A stretch of DNA of 64,000 nucleotides from Acidobacteriota bacterium (GCA_016184105.1 JACPDI010000037.1:25031-89030); one strand, 5' to 3'. Numbered from the stretch's first letter, positions 54,601-64,000 are shown. The notes: generated from the letters alone by a model not told the origin. Numbers and translations are program-made.

Positions 54601-54756
54601 GGATTCCCGATACACTTCGACTGGTCGTGGCGGACGCTGTTCAACCGCCGGTGGGAGGACGCCGTGTTCGCCCTCCAGGGACGGCAGGCAGGGAAGAGCG
54701 GCAGCGAATGGTTCAGAGAGCCACGCTTCTCCGTGTGGATCGGGTACGACTTCTAG
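51622..54756 (+). CDS. BamA/Omp85-family outer membrane protein with N-terminal peptidase MA-like (HExxH) and TolB/PD40 beta-propeller domains
   Basis: HELTH...WVDEGLA; SWSPAG/SPDG repeats; GGNSELRGY; NAELRFP; C-terminal GYDF. Confidence 0.85.
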   Translation: MEPNRLSSSLSARILSVTCAAVVAATVAAHAQTPFFPYHGKNRIQYDSFEWHVYTTDHFEIYYYPETEVHLERVASYAESAYQQISADLKHDLGHKVPLVLFKTQSEFQQQNIEPAELPEGVLAFAEPFRHRIVLPIDEPSDALYRLITHELTHQFEFDIIPRSLVRRSLPLWVDEGLADYLTGYWNAFDLMTVRDAALADGIPRMSDFQGAAFVDGRLPYNLGHAAFEFIESRWGKEGIRRFLFSLRKTVIGGGESPYEEALRLKSEEFDEQFRKYLRDRFKPFRDREIAGDYGRNLAPDREKTPYPVALSIAASPSSEMLAVAAGNRKDQELDILLISAADGRVIRNMTSGFNKDRGFEYIASPGGFRNNAVPWMSWSPAGDVIAYFARTEKHKTLILQNVATGKIDRRVPLKTVDMPESPSVSPDGRTVAFSALSGAVGDIFLVDVQTGDVRNLTGDAFGDFAPVFSPDGTSLVYLARVSGSNKLFRLDLSSGKKVQVSFGTHDDGGAQFLDRDTIVFPSTAVDPRLVVAPDIARNGQIYNLWTLNLANGELRQLTDTLTANVSPVVLRDGAQRRIAFVTYHKGEYSIHTLTRGEPVATIASADFGTPGPIVDFQPPLEHTLIESNRRKKGAFEKMLLEGRPPVNVGVTSGGDLFGGTQLTFTDVLGNQQLNLFAASVSQFQSAAVSYVNIGRRLQYALQGFSQTQFFFGNQPGVLFDQQLAFLDRDTARATQTARGITAFGIYPLNRYARVEFSGGFMSFKQEFEEPALQELADQFQRERLGRTVFSDGNLMPLGVAYVRETTVFREYGPLAGDTLRVGYEYAPSFGGLLSRQTADLDARYYLRLATNGVLALRLRGYRSWGDVPGFLYFGGNSELRGYDYLEFLGNKALFANAELRFPLIEAALTPLGVIGGLRGVMFANFGGAGLNGRSFKLWTGKTVEHTPLLGFAPDPLSPTGAQLVFGPAESIPGFKLVDGRASYGLGLETFALGFPIHFDWSWRTLFNRRWEDAVFALQGRQAGKSGSEWFREPRFSVWIGYDF

Positions 54757-55646
54757 CGGCGCTGGGGATCGCGCTGCTCTGTCCGCCGCGCGCCGCCCTC
54801 GCCGGGCCGATCACGTTTCTCACGGCGCTGCCGGTCGCGCAGGGGCAGGCCGTGATCCGCGGCCAGTACCTGCTCGTCCGCGCGTCCGGCGATCCGACGC
54901 CGGCGGACCGCGAGCTGACCGTGCAGGGCGTGCCGCTGGCCGTGGCGGTCGGCGCGACGCCGCGGCTGGCGATCTTCGGCGTCGTGCCGATCGCGCGCAA
55001 ATCGATGACGGCCACCACCCCCATGGGCCGCGTGACCCGCGACAGCACGGGGCTCGGCGACGTCGCCGCCTTTGCCAGGTACACGCTGTACTCCGTCGAC
55101 ACGACGGCGTCGACGCTCCGGATTGCGCCGTTCGGCGGGCTGAAGCTCCCGACGGGCGAGAGCGACGAGTCGGACGCGCTCGGCCGGCTGCCGCGACCGC
55201 TGCAGCCGGGCTCGGGCTCCTGGGACGTGCTCGGCGGCGCCGCCGTCACGTTCCAGACCAAACAGTGGGAGATCGATGCCGACGCCGGGGTGAGGAGAAC
55301 CACCGCAGCGGACGGCTTCGAGTTCGGCGACGAGTCGTTCGCCGACGTGTCGTTTCAATATCGCGTGTGGCCGCGACGGCTCGGCGGCGGCGTCCCCGCT
55401 TTCCTTTTCGCCGTCGTCGAGTCCAATCTGGTGGTGCAGGGCAGGCATCGCAGCGCGGGCGTCCCCGATCCAGATTCCGGCGGCACCCGGTGGGACGTGG
55501 ACCTCGGCCTGCAGCACGTCACGACGCGCGTCATCGTCGAGGGGATCGTGCAGATACCCGTCGTGGACGATCCCCGGGGCGCGGGACTGCGGAGCGATTT
55601 CCGTGTGATGGCCGGCGTCCGCTGGAACGTGACGCTGCCATTCTGA
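54735..55646 (+). CDS. Outer-membrane beta-barrel transporter (MetA-pathway/SphA-like)
   Basis: GLGDV, GLKLPTG, LQPGSGSWD; C-terminal Phe. Start uncertain. Confidence 0.7.
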   Translation: MDRVRLLAALGIALLCPPRAALAGPITFLTALPVAQGQAVIRGQYLLVRASGDPTPADRELTVQGVPLAVAVGATPRLAIFGVVPIARKSMTATTPMGRVTRDSTGLGDVAAFARYTLYSVDTTASTLRIAPFGGLKLPTGESDESDALGRLPRPLQPGSGSWDVLGGAAVTFQTKQWEIDADAGVRRTTAADGFEFGDESFADVSFQYRVWPRRLGGGVPAFLFAVVESNLVVQGRHRSAGVPDPDSGGTRWDVDLGLQHVTTRVIVEGIVQIPVVDDPRGAGLRSDFRVMAGVRWNVTLPF

Positions 55647-55667
55647 ACGGAGAAGGGTGAATTCACC

Positions 55668-56018
55668 ATGCGCACATCTCTCTCTCTGCGCGCGCGGCGG
55701 CTGCAAACGCCGATTGCGGTCCTGGCGGCCGTGTGGCTGTTCGCCGGCCCGTCGCGGGCAATCGCTCAGCAGCCGGAGGCCGCCCCGAAGCAGGCCGTCG
55801 TCACCGTGCGGGGCATGCAGTGTCCTTTCTGCGCGTACGGGATCCAGAAGCAGCTCAAGAAGCTCGCCGGCGTCGCGCGCGTACACGTCGAACTGGAAAA
55901 AAACCAGGCCGTCGTGACGCTTGCGCCCGGCGCCACGGTGACCGGCGCGGACATTCAGCGGGCGATCCGGAAGGCGGGCTTCACGCCCGGCAAGATCGAG
56001 TGGAAGACGGCGCCCTGA
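55668..56018 (+). CDS. Secreted heavy-metal-associated (HMA) domain protein
   Basis: Signal peptide; VRGMQCPFC; AGFTP. Confidence 0.85.
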   Translation: MRTSLSLRARRLQTPIAVLAAVWLFAGPSRAIAQQPEAAPKQAVVTVRGMQCPFCAYGIQKQLKKLAGVARVHVELEKNQAVVTLAPGATVTGADIQRAIRKAGFTPGKIEWKTAP

Positions 56019-57031
56019 TGCCTGCGCGCCCGCCATGTCTTGCGGCCCGCGTGGCCGGCTTCCTCGCCGTGATGGCGGTTGCCGCGGTCGCCTCCGCCAT
56101 CGCCGCATGGGGAACCCGATGGACGATTCCGCAAGCGCGGCCCGACGCCGCGCGGTACGCGCTGCGGGCGCAGTGGAATGGGATCGCGGCGCCGGCCGGC
56201 AGGCTCCTCCGGCCGATCGGTGTCGCGGCTGCGCCCACCGGCGACGTGTACGTGACCGACGCGCGGCTGCGCGTCGTCCGCTTCAGCGCGTCCGGCGACG
56301 TCCTGGGCGCGTGGGGAACGGAGGGGGACGGCCCGGGAGAGTTCAGGAATCCCGTGGGGATCGCGGCCGGACCGGACGGCTCGGTGTACGTCTCCGACTA
56401 CGAGCAGGATCGCGTTCAGAAATTCACCCCGAACGGCACGTTCATCGTCGCGTTCGGTCGCTCGGGATCGGGCCCCGGAGAGTTCAACGCGCCCGCCGGC
56501 GTGGCTGTCGATGGGGCCGGTGGGGTCTACGTCGCGGATTTCTACAACCATCGGATACAGAAGTGGCACTCGAACGGGTCGTTCGCGCAGGTGATCGGCC
56601 GGCCGGGGCGCATCGGCCCTGGCGCGCTGCACTATCCGACCGCCGTCGCGGTGACCGGGGGTGGCGAGCTGATCGTCGCCGACGCGTACAACTACCAGGT
56701 GCAGTGGTTCGACACGGAGGGCAGACCGCTGCGGCGAGCCGGGTACCACCTGTTCTGGGTCTGGCCGCGACCAGCCGGCTCGACGAGCGGGTTCTTCGTT
56801 CCGAGCGGCGTTGCGGTCGATCGGCGCGGCGTGCTCCACCTCGCCGACAGCGGCAACCACCGGGTGGTCATGCTGTCGCCGGAAGGCGAGTACGTCACCG
56901 AATGGCGCGTTCCGAACGCTGATCCGAAGGTGTATTCCCCCGAGCACGTCGCCGTGTCGCCGGACGGGCGCACGCTGTATGCGGCCGATGCGGCGCGCAA
57001 CCGTGTGCTCGTTCTCGCCGTCGGCCGCTGA
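56018..57031 (+). CDS. NHL-repeat beta-propeller protein
   Basis: Repeats GPGEFxxPxGIA...VYVxD...NHRIQK. Confidence 0.88.
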   Translation: MPARPPCLAARVAGFLAVMAVAAVASAIAAWGTRWTIPQARPDAARYALRAQWNGIAAPAGRLLRPIGVAAAPTGDVYVTDARLRVVRFSASGDVLGAWGTEGDGPGEFRNPVGIAAGPDGSVYVSDYEQDRVQKFTPNGTFIVAFGRSGSGPGEFNAPAGVAVDGAGGVYVADFYNHRIQKWHSNGSFAQVIGRPGRIGPGALHYPTAVAVTGGGELIVADAYNYQVQWFDTEGRPLRRAGYHLFWVWPRPAGSTSGFFVPSGVAVDRRGVLHLADSGNHRVVMLSPEGEYVTEWRVPNADPKVYSPEHVAVSPDGRTLYAADAARNRVLVLAVGR

Positions 57032-57062: not shown

Positions 57063-58091
57063 TCAGCGCTTCCAGAGATCCGTTCCGGGAAAGTACCCCA
57101 GCCACCCGAACCAGAACGCCGGATAGGCGGGCGCCCGCTCGAGCTGCGCGCCTTTGAGCGGACCTGATACCGCGCGGCCGTCGGCAATCGACCAGCGGCT
57201 GCCGGTCTCGCGATCTTCGAGCGCCGCGGGCGTGCCTTCGATGAGGCGGAACGAGAGCACGCGGCCCGACACGCGCCGGCCGAACGCGACGATCGGGTGA
57301 TCGTCTCCTGCGGCGACCAGGACGACGGGCAGCGATCCCGCCGTCGCCTCCGCGAGGCGCGCGTCGCGCACGTCCCGCTCGACGAACGCGATTGCCCCCT
57401 CGCCGGCTCGCACGCCGATGATGCGCTCCTTGGGCGGCAGCCGCTTGTCGCGGACCCGCCGGTTCAGGATGCCGATGCGGCCGGGGTCCCTGTTGTACGT
57501 CTCGTACGCCGAATTCCGGACGCCGCGCTGCCTCAGCACCAGGCTGTTCGGATAGAGCTGCTTCCACTGCTTCCACGTCGCGTGCACGGACGGGACGACC
57601 TCGAGCGCGCGTCCCATCAAGGGGCCCTTCACGCCCCGGCCATCCACGTGCGTCCACAGCGTGCCGGTCTCGCGGTCGTACATCACGAGCCCGTCGCGAA
57701 ACAACATGCCGGACACGCCGAAAGAAAGCACCCGCCCGCCCGTCTCTCTGGCATACACGATGCCAGTGCCGCAGAGCGGTCACCAGGTCGCCGCGATCGG
57801 CCGCCCCTCGAAGACGTCGTTCACGATCTCGTGCCGATCGAGCAGCCAGGTGGAGTACGCGCGCTGCTCGCGCTCGCCGACGACGCCGAGCACCAGCTCG
57901 TTGTCACGCAGCGGCGCCTTCGACGCCGGCTCGAACTCCGGGTTGAAGATCGCCGGGATCGCATCGCGCGGCAGGATGACGTGCAGCCGGTCGTCGTCCC
58001 CCTCGCTTTGCCCGGCCGCGGTGACCGCCACCAGGGTCGCCGCCGCGACCGCCAGGCACGCTGTGAGCGCGGGAAGTGATCCGAATCGCAT
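57063..58091 (-). CDS. DUF3179 family selenoprotein (UxxC), 342 aa
   Basis: In-frame TGA 57780-57782: HEIVND...AATW-U-PLCGTGIVY...FGVSGML...MYDRETGTLW...FWFGW. Confidence 0.9.
57748..57766 (-). promoter_or_regulatory. Putative bacterial SECIS element
   Basis: CTGGCAT-CGTGT-ATGCCAG; the loop starts 20 nt after UGA; lower stem CCGCTCT/AGAGACGG. Confidence 0.78.
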
Positions 58092-58102
58092 GGGGAGCTC
58101 CG

Positions 58103-58930
58103 TCAACGCTGGATGTCGTTGAGCGACCAGTCGTAAGAGAGATACCTGATGGAGGGGCGGCCGCTCCGTGCCAGATCTGCCGCCGCCGGCGGGCCGTACT
58201 TCACGACCGCGCCGAGAATCGCCCGCTCGTGCGCGTCCCCGGTGCCGGGCACCAGGCGCGCGTGCTGCCCGATGAAATCGCCGCCGTACCACTTGAAGAT
58301 GCTCGACACCCGGAAGGCGTCGCCGTCGATCTGCAGGCCTTCCTCGCTCGCGAGGTACCGCCGCCCCGCCTGGTCCAACTGCGCGCTCAGGGTCTTCGGC
58401 CGGTACGGCTCGCCCGCCAGGGGCGGGCACGAGACCGAGGCGCAGTTCACCGCGAAGTGAATGCGTGCGTCCTTGAACGTCGGGCGCAGGATGCCGTGCT
58501 CGATCTCGTCGAGCGAGACGGTTCGGCCCGCCGCCTGCCATTTCATCTCGGTCCACACGCCGTCGATCTGCCGGATGCTGTTGCGCGGGTACACCGTCAA
58601 CCAGGCCGAACGAATCGGGTAGTGATCGACGATGGCGCGGAGCGTGAACGCGTTGTACGCGTTGATCCAGAAGGCCATCCGCTGTTCGCGCGACCAGCCG
58701 CGCTCGCCCGCGGCCGCGGGCGAGGCGAACTCGGCGACGGCGCGATCGAGCCGCGCGCGGTCTGCCTTGAGCGCGGCGTAGTCGACGCGTGGATAGCGGA
58801 CGTGCCTCTTGAGGACATCCGCGTACGCGACGTACTCGTGATCGAACGCGCGGGCGCCCGGCGCAGGTCCGGCGTGTGAAACAGCGGCGATGCCGATCGC
58901 AAGGCCGAACGCGCTGAGGGCCCTCTTCAT
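58103..58930 (-). CDS. DUF547 domain secreted protein
   Basis: VDYAAL, AFWINAYNA, SLDEIEH.ILR, RIHFAVNCASVSCPPL, SSIFKWY, YDWSLN. Confidence 0.9.
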   Translation of the reverse strand: MKRALSAFGLAIGIAAVSHAGPAPGARAFDHEYVAYADVLKRHVRYPRVDYAALKADRARLDRAVAEFASPAAAGERGWSREQRMAFWINAYNAFTLRAIVDHYPIRSAWLTVYPRNSIRQIDGVWTEMKWQAAGRTVSLDEIEHGILRPTFKDARIHFAVNCASVSCPPLAGEPYRPKTLSAQLDQAGRRYLASEEGLQIDGDAFRVSSIFKWYGGDFIGQHARLVPGTGDAHERAILGAVVKYGPPAAADLARSGRPSIRYLSYDWSLNDIQR

Positions 58931-58931
58931 C

Positions 58932-59624
58932 TCACGCGGTCTCCTGCAGCGATGCCTTGAGCGCCGCGCGCGCGGCGCGCGCGGCGATCGTGGCGGCGGC
59001 CGCCGTCGCGGCCAGGCCGCCAACATACAGGACCATCCGCGCGCTTCCTCCTCCGCCGCCGGCCGACGACAACTCGGCGGCGGCCGGCGCCAGCGCGCCG
59101 AGGTACACGTACAGCGCCGTCCCCGGAAGCATCCCGAGAAACGACGCCAGAACGTACGTGCGGAGACGGACCTGCGTCAGGCTGAGCGCATAGTTCAAGA
59201 CGTTGAAGGGGAAGAGCGGCGAGAGGCGCAGCAGCACGACGATCTTGAACGCCTCTCGCCCGATTGCGCCGTCGACCGCCTTCAGCCGCGGAGACCGGCC
59301 GACGCGGGCGGCCGCCCAGTCCCGAAGCAGCGTGCGGCCGAGAAGGAACGCGCACGTCGCGCCGCAGACGCTGGCGGGCGAGGCGACCGCCAGCCCCCAG
59401 AACGGACCGAAGGCGAAGCCGGCCGCGAGCGTCAGGATCGATCCCGGCAGGAACGCCACGGTGCTGATGACATACGCCGCGAAGAACATCGCGACGCCGA
59501 GCGGGCCCGTGTTCCGCGCGCGCGCGGCGATGGCCGTGATCCAGCCGGCGACAGGCAGGGCGTACGCCGCGGTCGCCGCACCGGCGACGAGCAGCCCGAC
59601 GAGTGCGATCCGTCTCTTCGTCAT
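58932..59624 (-). CDS. TVP38/TMEM64 (VTT/DedA superfamily) membrane protein
   Basis: LPGSILTLAAGFAFG, LLRLSPLFPFNVLNY, GMLPGT. Confidence 0.92.
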   Translation of the reverse strand: MTKRRIALVGLLVAGAATAAYALPVAGWITAIAARARNTGPLGVAMFFAAYVISTVAFLPGSILTLAAGFAFGPFWGLAVASPASVCGATCAFLLGRTLLRDWAAARVGRSPRLKAVDGAIGREAFKIVVLLRLSPLFPFNVLNYALSLTQVRLRTYVLASFLGMLPGTALYVYLGALAPAAAELSSAGGGGGSARMVLYVGGLAATAAAATIAARAARAALKASLQETA

Positions 59625-60747
59625 GCCGCGAATCCCAGCGCCCACAGGGTGGCCGCGGCGAGCGCGGCGGAGACCGGCAGGGTCACCACCCACGCGCTCA
59701 CCAGCCCGCCCACCCGCCCCCACCGCACCGCGGCGACATCCTGCCGAAGACCGGCGCCGACGATGGCGCCGGTGGCCACGTGGGTGGTGGACACGGGCAG
59801 CGCGTAGAACGACGCAGAGAGCACCAGCGCCGCGCTGACGATCGACGCGGCCAGCCCCGTGCTCTGGTCCATGTCGACGACGCGCGCGCCGAGCGTGCGC
59901 GTCACGCGAAGGCCGCCGGCGTAGCTGCCGATGGTCATCGCCGCCCCGTGACCGCGAACGCCACCCGGAGATCCGCGTGCAGCGCGGTCAGTCCCAACGC
60001 GCCGATCGCCGCGATCTTCGCGTTGTCGTTCACGCCGCGCGCGAAGCTCAACGCCGCTGACGCGCCCCAGTGCAGCGCCTGCGCCGGGAAGAGGCGCCAG
60101 CCTCCGCCCGTGCCGCCGGCCGGCAGGCCGCCGCCGCCCTCAGCGCATCGGCACGTGCGGACGACGACGCCCGGCGCGAACACGGCCGAGGCGGCGCCAT
60201 CGGCGCCAGTCAGACCGGCCGCGACGCCGCTTTCTTCGACGCACACGCACGCCGGCGCGACGCGCGCGCCGAAACCCTGGACGGCGTAGCCAATCGCGGC
60301 GGAAGCCAGCGGGCTCACCGCAAGCGGCGCCGCTATGCCGGACAGCAGAACCCACCACCTGACCGAGCCGGCACCGCCCGCCGCCAGCGCGACGCCCACG
60401 ATCCCGCCGGTCACGGCGTGCGTCGTCGAGACCGGGAGGCCGGTCAGCGACGCGAAGATGACCCACGCGGCCGCTCCCGTGGCGACGGCCAGCGGAAAGG
60501 TGGGCAGCGCGAGCACCTCCGGTCCGACAATCGCCGACGTGAACGCGTTGACGAGCCCGGCGGAAATCGCGAAGGACGCCAGCGCGCCGGCCAACGTCCA
60601 TAGCGTGCCCCAGGCGATCGCCGTTCGATACGAGGCGCGTCCCGTGCCGGCGAGCGTGGCCACGCCCTTCGACACGTCGTTCGCGCCATTGGCAAACCCG
60701 AGCACCGCCGCTCCGGCGGCAGTCAGGATGGCGAGCGTCACCGGCAT
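59621..60747 (-). CDS. Inorganic phosphate transporter (PiT) family, split by a 1-nt frameshift at about 59945-59948
   Basis: FANGANDV, GLPVSTTH, ARGVND, PVSTTHV, WVVTLP. One base is missing at a G run. Confidence 0.82.
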
Positions 60748-63230
60748 CAGCAGCAGCTCCCGTCCGCGCCGCAGCGGGCGCCGCCGCCGTCGATCGCCGC
60801 CGTCGACGCGATCCCGTCGAGCACCGCGAAGCCGCCGGCATACGGCGGCGCCCCGAGTTTGGCCGCCGTGTCCGTGCACACCTCCACGGGAACACCGCGC
60901 GGGAAGAGATGTCCCTCCTCGTCGGTCACGCTTTTCATCGGCCCGAGATAGACGGCGTACTGGCCGATATAGCGGCAGCCGGCCTTCTTCTCGAACTTGA
61001 ATCCGCGCACGGTCACCGAGTAGAAGTGCGTGCCTTCGACCTCGCGCCAGAACATCTTCTTCAGCACCGTGATGCCGTAAAAGCCGGCGCGCTCGAGCGC
61101 GGCGAGAAACGCGTCCTCCGAGAGGGCGCCGCTGATGCACTCGCCCCAGAGCTGGCCGTCGGCGCGCATCGGTGGGGGCACCTCGGTGTCCGAGACGATG
61201 TCGGCCAGAACCGCGCGGCCACCGTCGCGCAGCACGCGCCAGATCTCGCGGAACACCGCGGGCTTGTCGGGCGACAGGTTGATGACGCAGTTCGACGTCA
61301 CGATGTCGGCCGAGAGGTTGTCCAGGGGAATCCGTTCGAGGATCCCCTTGCGGAACTCCACGTTGTCGTACCCCAGGGCCGCGGCGACGCGCGGCTTCGA
61401 CTCGTGCGCCACCGCGAGCATCTGGTCGGTCATGTCGACGCCGAACACGTGCCCGCCCGGTCCCACGCGCCGGGCGGCGATGAAGCAGTCGATCCCCGCG
61501 CCGGAGCCGAGATCGACGAGCGTCTCTCCCGGCTGCGGCGCGGCCGCCGACACCGGGCTGCCGCATCCGTAGAACCGTTCAACGACCTCAGGCGGGATGT
61601 GCGCCAGGTCTTCTGCGTCCGGGCGCACCGGGCAGCACAACTCCGCCTGAGGTTCTTCCGCCGCGTGGCCGTAGAACTCGCGGACGGCTGCACGCGACCG
61701 ATCCGCGACCTCCTCCGACAACACGCAGGCAGAATGCGTCGTACGCACGATCTCCGGCTCGTCGTGGAGCGTGCGCTCACCCATGCCGCGCAGGACGACC
61801 GGCCGATCGAAGCCGGACCGCGGCTGGACCGTCGCGCGCCCCTCGACGACGAGCTGCTTCAAGGCATCGCGCGCCAGGCCCTGGTACAGCTCGCAGTAGG
61901 GATCGTGGCCGGCGAAGCTGCCGCGTCCCGACGAGCCGCCCGAAGCCCAGTAGCCGTGCTCGAGATCCCCGCCGCCGCAGAGAAACTTGAGGTGGCAGCT
62001 CCGGCACTGCGCCTTCTGATCGACGGTCACGCCGCGCAGGTCGTTCAGGACAGGGCTGTTCTTCCAGATGCTCTCGAGCGCGGCGTCGAGCACGCTGCCG
62101 CACCGCAGGTCCGGAACCCCGGCCATCGACGCCGAAGGGTAGATGCCGCCGTCCGGCGCCAGGCACAGGCTCGTCCATCCAGCCCCCGCGAGGTCGTTTT
62201 TCACGCGCGGCGTGCCGTCGAAGCGCAGCCTCAGCTCCTCGACGTTGTCGATCGTCACGCCCTTTGCGGCAGCCGCGTCACGCGCGCGGCGCACGGTCTC
62301 GAGGATCTCGGACGCGGAGGGAAGGTTGGCGAACGGCCCCGCGAGCACGCGGCCGCGGCGATGCGGCCACAGCAGGTGGACGTTTCGGACGCCGAGCTCC
62401 GCCGCGAGTTCGACGAGTGCCGGCGCGTCCGACAGGTTGCGCCGCAGCAGCACCATCGTGATCGTCGTGCGCAGGCCGGCATCGACCGCCGCGCGGATGC
62501 CGGCGCGGATGCGCCCGAACGTCCCGGCGCCGCGAATCGGATCGTTGACCTCCGGCGACGCGCCGTCGAGGCTGATCTGCACGCGCAGCCGGTCGGACGG
62601 CAGCGCCGCCAGGGCGCGAAGCCGGGCGCCCTTGAACAAGGTGCCGTTGGTCATCAGCACCAGCTCGCGCTGCCGCGTCCCGACGATGTCCTCGATCAAC
62701 TCGATCGCGTCGGCGCGCGCGAGCGGCTCGCCGCCCGTGAGATAAAAACGTTCGGCGCCGAGCGCTTCCGCCTGGTCGATGGCCGAGCGCAGCGCGGGCG
62801 CCGGCAGTCCCTTCGCGCCGTCCGGTCCCGACGACACGAGGCAATGCTCGCAGGCGAGGTTGCAGAAGTCGTTGACCTGGATCCAGAACTCGCGGAGCCG
62901 CTCGGTCCGCAGGTAAGCGGCGCGGCCGAGATAGGGCAGCGGCACCGCGCCGTCGGTCGAGATGAACTGCTGCCGCAGGGCGTCGCGCGTGAACGTGTCG
63001 ACGTGCAGCCACGCCCGCGCGGCGTCCAGGCCGGATTCGGCGGCGTAGGCCCGCACGACCTCGCCGAGAGGAGTACGGCCGTCCAGGTGCCGGAGAATGC
63101 GCAGGCCGCGCTCGTCGGTCGCGATCCAGTTCGGGCCCGCCGGATCGATGGCGATGGCGGCCCCCTCGGCACGCTCGACGACGGTCGCCGGCGCGCGCAG
63201 CACGGTCTGATCGGTCACTATCTTGTCCAT
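60747..63230 (-). CDS. Fusion: PqqD/RRE-like + radical SAM + degenerate SPASM + ArsM/AS3MT-type arsenite methyltransferase, 827 aa
   Basis: CNLACEHC, TGGEP, MTNG, QISLDG; CRSCHLKFLCGGG...DPYC; LCCP, YGCGSP, DLGSGAGID, SNCVINL, WGECISGAL; C-terminal CC. Confidence 0.88.
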   Translation of the reverse strand: MDKIVTDQTVLRAPATVVERAEGAAIAIDPAGPNWIATDERGLRILRHLDGRTPLGEVVRAYAAESGLDAARAWLHVDTFTRDALRQQFISTDGAVPLPYLGRAAYLRTERLREFWIQVNDFCNLACEHCLVSSGPDGAKGLPAPALRSAIDQAEALGAERFYLTGGEPLARADAIELIEDIVGTRQRELVLMTNGTLFKGARLRALAALPSDRLRVQISLDGASPEVNDPIRGAGTFGRIRAGIRAAVDAGLRTTITMVLLRRNLSDAPALVELAAELGVRNVHLLWPHRRGRVLAGPFANLPSASEILETVRRARDAAAAKGVTIDNVEELRLRFDGTPRVKNDLAGAGWTSLCLAPDGGIYPSASMAGVPDLRCGSVLDAALESIWKNSPVLNDLRGVTVDQKAQCRSCHLKFLCGGGDLEHGYWASGGSSGRGSFAGHDPYCELYQGLARDALKQLVVEGRATVQPRSGFDRPVVLRGMGERTLHDEPEIVRTTHSACVLSEEVADRSRAAVREFYGHAAEEPQAELCCPVRPDAEDLAHIPPEVVERFYGCGSPVSAAAPQPGETLVDLGSGAGIDCFIAARRVGPGGHVFGVDMTDQMLAVAHESKPRVAAALGYDNVEFRKGILERIPLDNLSADIVTSNCVINLSPDKPAVFREIWRVLRDGGRAVLADIVSDTEVPPPMRADGQLWGECISGALSEDAFLAALERAGFYGITVLKKMFWREVEGTHFYSVTVRGFKFEKKAGCRYIGQYAVYLGPMKSVTDEEGHLFPRGVPVEVCTDTAAKLGAPPYAGGFAVLDGIASTAAIDGGGARCGADGSCC

Positions 63231-64000
63231 GAAAAATATCGTTCGAGCCACCGGCGAACGCCCGGTGTGAGCGACTGGCGGCGGTACATGTCCCCCGCCT
63301 TCCGAAGCGCCTCGGCCTGCGTCGGGTACGGGTGGACGGTCGAGGAGAGCGCCCCGAGCGTTCCGCGATGCGTCATCGCGTACGCCACCTCGCCGATCAT
63401 TTCTCCGGCGTGCGGCGCCACGATCGTGCACCCGCGCAGGCGCCCGCGCTCGTGGTGCACCCGCACGAAGCCGTCGGTCTCATCGTCAACGACCGCGCGA
63501 TCGACGTCCGCGAGCGGCACGGCGATCGTCTGCAGGCGCCCGCCGCTGTTCGCCACTTCCGCCTCGGACACGCCGAGGTGGGCGACCTCGGGATCCGTGT
63601 ACGTGACCCACGGGATGACCAGGGCACTTGCCGTGCGCCTGCCGAAGAACAGCGCGTTCTGGATGACGATGCGCGACATGGCATCGGCGGCGTGGGTGAA
63701 CTTGTAGTCGGAGCACACGTCGCCCGACGCGTACACGCGCGGGTTCGACGTCTGCAGCCGATCGTTGACGCTGACGCCCCGCGGGGTGGCCTTGATGCCG
63801 GCCAGGTCCAGGCGGAGCCCCTCGATGTTGGGCGCGCGGCCGGCAGCGACCAGGAGCACCTCGCCGGTGACGCTCGCGCGTCCCTGGCGCTCTCCGTCGC
63901 GGAAGTAGTGCAAACGGACTTCACCCGGCAGCGCGTCGGCGCGATCGAGCCTGATGCCCGTTTCGAATCGCACGCCGTCGCTTTCCATCCGGCGCCGGAC
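63218..64000 (-). CDS. FAD-dependent pyridine nucleotide-disulfide oxidoreductase (MerA/LpdA-like, no C-terminal CC), 5' end outside window
   Basis: LVAAGRAPN, TSNPRVYASGDV, FTHAAD, PWVTYTDPE, VHPYPTQAE. Confidence 0.9.
   Translation of the reverse strand, partial: VRRRMESDGVRFETGIRLDRADALPGEVRLHYFRDGERQGRASVTGEVLLVAAGRAPNIEGLRLDLAGIKATPRGVSVNDRLQTSNPRVYASGDVCSDYKFTHAADAMSRIVIQNALFFGRRTASALVIPWVTYTDPEVAHLGVSEAEVANSGGRLQTIAVPLADVDRAVVDDETDGFVRVHHERGRLRGCTIVAPHAGEMIGEVAYAMTHRGTLGALSSTVHPYPTQAEALRKAGDMYRRQSLTPGVRRWLERYFSWTR

Follow-up and report, generated by a model that had tools for sequence, protein, structure and literature searches.

A widespread fusion of a radical SAM/SPASM domain and an ArsM-type methyltransferase: a candidate one-chain carbon–arsenic enzyme of uncultured bacteria

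Introduction

Can arsenic methylation and the radical formation of a carbon–arsenic bond be carried out by a single protein chain? This question is raised by a 64,000-nucleotide (nt) stretch of DNA from an Acidobacteriota bacterium (GCA_016184105.1, JACPDI010000037.1:25031–89030), here called the window (G000:C54:25031-89030 in our numbering; feature coordinates are counted within the window unless prefixed with G000:C54). Its minus strand encodes an 827-amino-acid (aa) protein, hereafter the fusion, in which an RRE domain, a radical SAM domain, a degenerate SPASM domain, and a cysteine-bearing linker precede an ArsM-type methyltransferase (Table 1). The original prediction, made from the sequence alone, had placed this protein at the center of a new organoarsenic pathway with a selenoprotein partner. 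In its accessible text, a review names two bacterial radical SAM routes to carbon–arsenic compounds, ArsS and ArsL (PMC12159101). According to the accessible parts of the respective papers, ArsS adenosylates dimethylarsenite, DMAs(III), to DDMAA, or 5'-deoxy-5'-dimethylarsinoyl-adenosine (PMC13598754), and the C-terminal cysteines of ArsL bind arsenic and are needed for its product (10.1101/2024.02.01.577332; 10.64898/2026.04.29.721666). The fusion is a real, widespread, and unnamed enzyme that exceeds no NCBIfam cut-off shown, and literature searches, which mostly did not reach subscription journals, found no description of it. We propose, at slightly better than even odds (a probability of about 0.55), that it is a one-chain equivalent of the ArsM and ArsS pair, which would convert arsenite to dimethylarsenite and then to DDMAA by means of a peptide-maturase scaffold, an RRE occupied by the protein itself, and an arm bearing a cysteine.

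Domain composition and family relationships

The C-terminal half of the fusion was consistently matched to ArsM. Its five best sequence matches in the PDB were all ArsM or AS3MT proteins (E values of 8e-42 to 2e-35, with the next methyltransferase at 1.5e-7), as were its top 12 fold matches. In the alignments, C556, C648, and C698 corresponded to residues 72, 174, and 224 of chain 4fr0_A, and C532/C533 to the N-terminal cysteine of 5evj_A, so all four ArsM/AS3MT cysteine positions that had been predicted are present, together with the terminal CC. All 119 close homologs had the cysteines of the four positions; among the 18 fusion rows examined, the three core arsenic-binding cysteines were present in every one, and the N-terminal pair was absent from nine. 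A quick methyltransferase tree with 94 rows was constructed without bootstrap (as was the radical SAM tree below) and contained 80 ArsM loci chosen by their likeness to the query. Here, the methyltransferase half fell inside a clade (99% support) made up of 81 ArsM rows, cyanobacterial ArsS-linked sequences among them, and 13 other methyltransferases lay outside. Clustering with non-arsenic methyltransferases, which the original prediction had put forward as a test, was therefore not what we observed.

The radical half, on the other hand, lies outside the ArsS family, as had been predicted. It scored 49.8 bits against the ArsS model TIGR04167 (cut-off, 300), and its 25 best NCBIfam matches shown all stayed below the cut-off of the respective named family. 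A Pfam scan found no DUF3641 domain in the 827-aa fusion, whereas true ArsS controls matched it. The radical domain aligned with ArsS at 29% over 145 aa and was separated from it by a branch of 2.6 in the radical SAM tree. The closest folds of the N-terminal half were RRE-radical SAM peptide maturases and anSME, consistent with the predicted likeness to PqqE and other SPASM enzymes. The SPASM domain itself is present but degenerate, its first-cluster cysteines having been replaced; here, we take the ligand pattern of anSME to apply when assigning SPASM cysteines to the auxiliary clusters.

Scoring of 7995 candidates identified 398 proteins as relatives of the fusion, and among the matches listed, fusion loci occurred in Acidobacteriota, Planctomycetota, Gemmatimonadota, Thermodesulfobacteriota, Pseudomonadota, Fibrobacterota, and Nitrospirota. 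The radical SAM tree comprised 108 rows: those of the 150 best 50%-cluster representatives that were at least 425 aa long with a recognizable motif, the query with four close homologs, and eight controls. It contained a 52-row clade (96%) consisting mostly of ArsM fusions, a 22-row sister set, nine rows in two small groups, and a 17-row outgroup. First-cluster cysteines at positions 348, 366, and 422 were found in 20, 21, and 19 of the 22 sister rows, respectively, versus 0, 1, and 0 of the 52 fusion-clade rows. From these alignments, the sister set appears to have a full SPASM domain and the fusion clade to have lost the cysteines of the first auxiliary cluster. All four second-cluster cysteines were retained in only eight of the 52 rows, the window's protein included. 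By contrast, the residues of the presumptive pocket were nearly invariant in the fusion clade (D422 in 51, N329 in 52, and H285 in 51 of 52 rows), and the linker cysteine C502 was retained in 44 rows, that is, in 44 of 47 when the five rows that end before this position are set aside. Of the three true losses, one was in a protein that is not fused, and the other two were in proteins with degenerate ArsM cysteines as well. The CxxxCxxC motif, the pocket residues, and C502 were conserved across phyla at 30–85% identity. In the sister enzymes, whether fused or free, the radical module mostly ended in an HCxC-like tail, which was missing from the outgroup rows shown; we accordingly assign the cysteine arm to the radical module.

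The wider family is diverse. Related radical SAM domains were fused to ArsM in the reverse order in P0174, P0180, and P0185. Many of the forms of about 1000–1080 aa (P0141, P0158, L020, L021, L027, and L100) lacked both the N-terminal ArsM cysteine pair and the cysteines of the second cluster; the scanned P-numbered ones had an additional C-terminal DUF5714 domain, and P0141 matched the MbdU (metal-binding selenoprotein) model below its cut-off. Among the sister enzymes with an HCxC-like tail, P0156 carried two TusA domains, and P0147, P0148, and P0169 carried a non-ArsM methyltransferase. P0216, P0245, and their relatives are radical SAM/SPASM proteins with a PF[DE]C[IT]-like tail. Natural cysteine-loss variants included P0205 and P0240, in which the arm cysteine and ArsM cysteines were lost, and the unfused P0134 and L096:9308-10843, which lack the arm cysteine. 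The latter gene, an unfused member of the family, follows a TauE/SafE gene. L112 was rejected as a family locus: L112:5531-11106 consists of three tandem radical SAM genes with a PmbA/TldD peptidase and an ABC exporter, and is probably a cluster for a ribosomally synthesized and post-translationally modified peptide (RiPP).

Association with arsenosugar-labeled glycosyltransferases and ArsS

Independent support for the predicted link to arsenic came from the surroundings of the fusion. Beyond the window end, the same contig encodes a fused TIGR04283–TIGR04282 protein, each half of which scored above the cut-off of its model; in NCBIfam, these models carry the label of arsenosugar biosynthesis glycosyltransferases. 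The same families occurred in the genomes of relatives, and TIGR04282 was itself fused to related radical SAM domains in P0216 (over the cut-off) and P0245 (just under it), both within the small groups of the radical SAM tree; in these two, the N-terminal TIGR04282 domain replaces the RRE.

We compared the neighborhoods of the fusion with those of known systems. The locus counts are a sample, among the matches listed from 1/64 collection parts, and the queries were the window's own genes, which biases the survey towards fusion loci; nine of the 39 fusion-type loci spanned less than 10 kb, and two genomes supplied two loci each. At least one accessory family (such as TIGR04282/04283, PRK06370-type reductase, VTT, DUF547, or PiT) was present at 21 of 39 fusion-type loci and at a similar proportion of ArsM+ArsS loci (10 of 21), versus nine of 41 ArsM-only loci and one of 71 other radical SAM/SPASM loci. 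When the window's own locus and the false member L112 were removed and a VTT gene found with Pfam in L014 was added, accessory genes were present at 21 of 37 loci. ArsS was found at none of the 39. Since ordinary ArsM+ArsS loci have these accessories around them too, the context points to an arsenosugar-like product. The original reading of a new pathway is thus supported in its arsenic link and its pairing of an ArsM-type half with a non-ArsS radical half, but weakened as regards the novelty of the pathway. Nor was the six-gene set a conserved unit: none of the 37 other loci contained all six genes, which rules out a conserved six-gene operon, although L093 and L107 had five accessory genes each. 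The reductase, DUF547, DUF3179 selenoprotein, VTT, and PiT genes would rather be exchangeable helpers, taken from a pool that also supplies ArsS loci.

At one locus, L046, the accessory set surrounded ArsM and a third radical SAM type of about 290 aa that belongs neither to ArsS nor to the fusion family. This "short" radical SAM type (L028:3464-4327, L040:2291-3190, L046:11172-12161, and L018:601-2463) lies beside ArsM, is fused to it in L018, and is nearest to the Rv1681 family model, far below the cut-off. It is another candidate ArsS substitute.

A complementary pattern was observed in whole genomes. Among 401 genomes of the phylum, the fusion family was found in 13, ArsS in 77, the "short" type in 42, and TIGR04282 in 163. 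TIGR04282 accompanied ArsS in 73 of 77 genomes, the "short" type in 41 of 42, and the fusion family in 10 of 13, and was present in 119 of the 126 genomes with any of the three radical SAM types versus 44 of the 275 with none. The three types seldom overlapped (ArsS and "short" in three genomes, ArsS and fusion family in three, "short" and fusion family in none). Among the TIGR04282-positive genomes, ArsS or the "short" type occurred in two of 10 fusion-family carriers versus 109 of 153 others, and 46 of the 90 genomes of the phylum that bear TIGR04282 and are free of ArsS carried the fusion family or the "short" type. In the three family genomes without TIGR04282, TIGR04283 exceeded its cut-off, its background rate lying outside this comparison. 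Fourteen further fusion genomes of unstated completeness from several phyla, collected in other searches, contained TIGR04282 in 11 cases and ArsS in one, and ArsS was not found in the 96%-complete source genome. Hence, ArsS, the "short" type, and the fusion family nearly partition the glycosyltransferase-bearing genomes. Replacement of ArsS by the fusion holds at the locus level and loosely at the genome level. Four unpublished genomes (G085, G181, G062, and G435, the last being L012) each contribute one row to these tallies, and L012 also enters the locus counts and one alignment; no conclusion depends on them alone.

A predicted pseudo-leader in the linker

The N-terminal domain had been predicted to be an RRE. 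Its Pfam score was below the cut-off (PF05402, 21.1 versus 23.4 bits), but in the full-length model of the 827-aa fusion (predicted local distance difference test [pLDDT] score, 89; predicted template modeling score, 0.84), the region consists of three strands and three helices, and its fold and topology fit an RRE. When residues 1–468 were folded with residues 474–505 as a separate chain, the linker docked onto the RRE with a score of 0.79 (best control, 0.00), at least 74% contact agreement between runs, and a partner pLDDT of at least 70; of 157 solved complexes, 116 attained the mark applied, as did two of 215 mismatched pairs. A pass was expected, since the two pieces belong to a single chain and RRE–peptide complexes have been solved; what is informative is the interface. 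In the model, linker residues 477–483 pair with RRE residues 33–39 and with helix 75–87, which we take to be the leader-peptide-binding elements; linker residues 492–501 belong to the same interface, as do H285, N329, 336–353, and 419–422. W35, M483, and G484 were conserved together in the fusion clade (51, 48, and 49 of 52 rows, respectively). On the basis of this model, we predict that the fusion carries its own pseudo-leader, which would bring the cysteine arm to the site left empty by the lost cluster.

The fusion resembles the RRE-radical SAM/SPASM maturases (CteB, SkfB, SuiB, and PqqE) and anSME in its N-terminal fold and in the predicted use of the RRE leader site. It differs from them in the loss of the first auxiliary-cluster cysteines, in an RRE predicted to bind its own linker, in scores far below the cut-offs of all named families shown, and in the lack of a detected precursor gene. 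Comparison across loci of 850 small open reading frames (ORFs) on the strand of the fusion matched only shadow frames of close kin, although a fast-evolving or distant precursor would escape such a comparison.

Proposed reaction and alternative explanations

The chemistry that we infer for the fusion begins at the ArsM domain, which, judging from its homology, would bind As(III) on C556, C648, and C698 and methylate it twice. Modeling predicts that linker strand 477–483 fills the protein's own RRE like a leader peptide, and that residues 492–501 are placed along the barrel mouth by H285, N329, and D422, at the site emptied of the first auxiliary cluster. C502 would then take the methylarsenic and offer it to the radical, much as the cysteine tail of ArsL binds arsenic, and addition of the 5'-deoxyadenosyl radical from SAM to the arsenic would give the arsenosugar precursor DDMAA. 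From the context, the TIGR04283/TIGR04282 protein may turn this product into an arsenosugar or arsenolipid precursor.

Like ArsM with ArsS (the latter being TIGR04167 with DUF3641), the fusion pairs an ArsM-type methyltransferase with a radical SAM domain; unlike them, it is a single chain without TIGR04167 or DUF3641, and it has its own RRE, a degenerate SPASM domain, and a single-cysteine linker arm. It shares with the arsinothricin enzymes ArsL and ArsM the combination of radical SAM and ArsM and a cysteine-bearing segment C-terminal to the barrel. It differs from them in that its sequence lacks the RCCLKC motif, no ArsL family was among its 25 best NCBIfam matches shown, and no arsQML-like context was seen around it. 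In a bolder version of the proposal, the fusion represents a third class of carbon–arsenic radical enzyme, in which a peptide maturase with a captured "leader" uses an RRE-steered cysteine arm to carry toxic methylarsenite from the ArsM site to a vacated Fe–S pocket, generating an undescribed organoarsenical in uncultured bacteria of many phyla. We regard this version as doubtful.

Several observations weigh against the proposed ArsM-plus-ArsS equivalence. The methyltransferase half appears ArsM-like by homology, yet NCBIfam does not file it as ArsM: it scored below every curated ArsM cut-off (NF008823, 229.5 of 263; NF038099, 130 of 400; NF040538, 199 of 500). Some sister radical SAM domains are fused to non-ArsM methyltransferases or to TusA. 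The docking pass may reflect likeness to solved RRE–peptide complexes, C502 is outside the confidently placed residues of the docked model, and the arm has one cysteine versus three in ArsL. About four-tenths of the 37 other loci contained no accessory family, and a glycosyltransferase lay within the fetched DNA at only eight of them. The "arsenosugar" label of TIGR04282/04283 is that of NCBIfam, and no paper testing it was found in the literature searches. In the genome comparison, 44 genomes carried TIGR04282 yet none of the three radical SAM types, the "short" type is itself uncharacterized, and kin are not independent, so the co-occurrence tallies are overstated. Finally, ArsS was present alongside the fusion family in four of 27 family genomes (3 of 13 and 1 of 14), which rules out strict exclusion at the genome level, and its overall frequency showed no depletion (3 of 13 family carriers versus 74 of 388 others, p = 0.72).

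The alternative that survives best retains the same arsenic chemistry as far as methylated As(III) but assigns another product to the radical step, through, for example, aminocarboxypropyl transfer as in ArsL, a radical on an As-methyl group, or sugar or lipid coupling, so that a new organoarsenical would be the end point, as the original prediction suggested. The distance of the radical domain from ArsS and the rebuilt pocket would suit such a change, and the co-carriage of ArsS in some family genomes fits a separate job. However, accessory genes in common with ArsS loci and a near partition with ArsS and the "short" type are the pattern of interchangeable enzymes, and we consider a different product unlikely. 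There is also a small chance that the radical domain is a cis-acting maturase and the linker its built-in precursor, so that the protein modifies its own THSAC segment (by a thioether cross-link or a formylglycine-like oxidation) to activate or equip the methyltransferase. The nearest folds are indeed peptide maturases and anSME, the modeled linker occupies the leader site and reaches the barrel mouth, no conserved small precursor ORF was seen near the loci apart from the shadow frames of close kin, and the HCxC tail occurs in sister enzymes regardless of partner; nevertheless, single-turnover self-modification accounts for neither the ArsS partition nor the TIGR04282 fusions of relatives.

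Another soft element (Se, S, or Sb) or a thiol could be the substrate if the ArsM-like domain were only apparently arsenic-specific. A selenoprotein neighbor and selenocysteine machinery, the sister radical SAM proteins fused to TusA (one) and to non-ArsM methyltransferases (three), and a stand-alone ordinary ArsM elsewhere in the genome (on contig C39, beside an ORF that, from its motif, is presumably ArsC-like) would all be compatible with this idea. Its prospects are nonetheless slim, given that the core arsenic-binding cysteines were conserved in all 18 fusion rows and all 119 close homologs, and that DUF3179 lies beside the fusion at only four of 37 other loci, often in its cysteine form. 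Finally, the protein could be an ordinary detoxifying ArsM whose radical domain is a passenger, within a metal/redox island that came together by chance. This would explain the many loci without an accessory gene and the decay of the SPASM cysteines, but it is very improbable in view of the CxxxCxxC, pocket, and C502 residues conserved across phyla and the near absence of the accessory families from other radical SAM/SPASM loci.

Operon and neighboring genes

The fusion is encoded in a group of six closely packed minus-strand genes, in the order PRK06370-type reductase, fusion, PiT, VTT, DUF547, and DUF3179, with successive junctions of −13, −1, −4, +1, and +11 nt. The ORFs, junctions, and family profiles thus bear out the predicted arrangement. 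The sequencing runs with the best matches to the window were groundwater and sediment metagenomes.

Table 1. Features of the fusion operon and of the glycosyltransferase gene beyond the window
Feature	Position	Strand	Basis or remarks
PRK06370-type flavin disulfide reductase, 507 aa	63218..64000, on to 64741 beyond the window	-	NF004991, 692 bits (cut-off, 620); full ORF from genome
827-aa fusion: RRE, radical SAM, degenerate SPASM, Cys linker, ArsM	60747..63230	-	
RRE/PqqD-like domain, about residues 10–92	62955..63203	-	PF05402, E 4e-4, under cut-off; model fold; interface list
Radical SAM core CxxxCxxC (C123, C127, C130)	62841..62864	-	Invariant in 119/119 close homologs
SPASM-like domain	61836..62201	-	Cys 409/412/418/446 present; first-cluster positions are A348, S366, D422
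Linker 474–505: predicted pseudo-leader strand 477–483, then THSAC arm with C502	61716..61811	-	
ArsM/AS3MT-type methyltransferase, C-terminal domain, terminal CC	60750..61715	-	PDB sequence matches, fold, tree
PiT/PHO4 transporter, frameshifted	59621..60747	-	Two frames match profile positions 1–233 and 252–350
VTT/TVP38 (DedA-like) membrane protein	58932..59624	-	PF09335, E 9e-29
DUF547 protein, hydrophobic N-terminus, CxxxxC motif	58103..58930	-	
DUF3179 selenoprotein, UxxC motif, TGA at 57780–57782	57063..58091	-	
Hairpin, candidate selenocysteine insertion sequence (SECIS), start 16 nt past first TGA base	57748..57766	-	
TIGR04283+TIGR04282 fusion	G000:C54:92947-94329, ~4 kb beyond window end	+	Two halves, 226 bits (cut-off, 182) and 174.6 bits (cut-off, 134)

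The PiT gene is of the predicted family and in the predicted place, but it is split by a frameshift near 59943–59945 that had been overlooked. Of four related runs, X2, X3, and X7 each carried one additional base at this position, and X1 had no contig there. The frameshift is therefore probably an assembly error or a minor allele of a gene that is whole in the population, and a fixed pseudogene is not supported.

The predicted selenocysteine (Sec) of the DUF3179 protein was supported by alignment, which placed the in-frame TGA at the first cysteine of a CxxC motif. The window's locus (L001) and L093 have TGA at this codon, and five further aligned copies have TGC. The population itself is mixed, runs X3 and X7 having TGA and X2 having TGC. 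The genome contains selA, selB, and tRNA-Sec, and a hairpin follows the UGA at the right spacing in L001 and L093. In an energy test, the 68-nt stretch folded no better than shuffled sequences (z = 0.45), so the hairpin's position is its only support. The protein shares its family and motif with the DUF3179 UxxC/T proteins that, in the accessible text of two studies, are already listed as predicted selenoproteins (PMC9312934, PMC13188914); only the operon link is new. Thus, the selenocysteine of the proposed partner is supported, but it is a known and Sec/Cys-variable feature of DUF3179, and because the gene adjoins the fusion at so few other loci, it is an optional helper.

Outside the operon, plus-strand genes for MetA-like, heavy-metal-associated (HMA), and NHL-repeat proteins (54699–57028) converge on the operon end, forming a metal-handling neighborhood. 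Beyond the window, a divergent plus-strand cluster (G000:C54:89907-95359, equivalent to L001:11908-17360) encodes an ORF that, from its motif, we take to be zinc-finger anti-sigma-like, an ECF sigma factor, a Crp/Fnr regulator, an AhpD-like protein (TIGR01926), a 155-aa membrane protein, the TIGR04283–04282 protein, and a Zn-dehydrogenase. ECF genes also flank L094, L095, L102, and L046 and may constitute a thiol- or arsenite-sensing switch. In the close kin L090, L091, and L106, the fusion lies downstream of msrPQ-like genes, and the fetched DNA contains no accessory of the arsenosugar type. A betaine-type ABC transporter was rejected as a recurring partner: the eight-locus cluster that had suggested it consisted of mixed ABC ATPases, and OpuAC occurred once among the 79 neighbors scanned (of 196 called).

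Implications

The fusion family is widespread in uncultured lineages, and because the protein is a single soluble chain, the carbon–arsenic claim is directly testable. If the proposal is true, an RRE has been reused in cis to position a substrate-carrying cysteine, which would be a new use of this domain, and it would caution against interpreting every RRE-SPASM gene as part of a peptide pathway.

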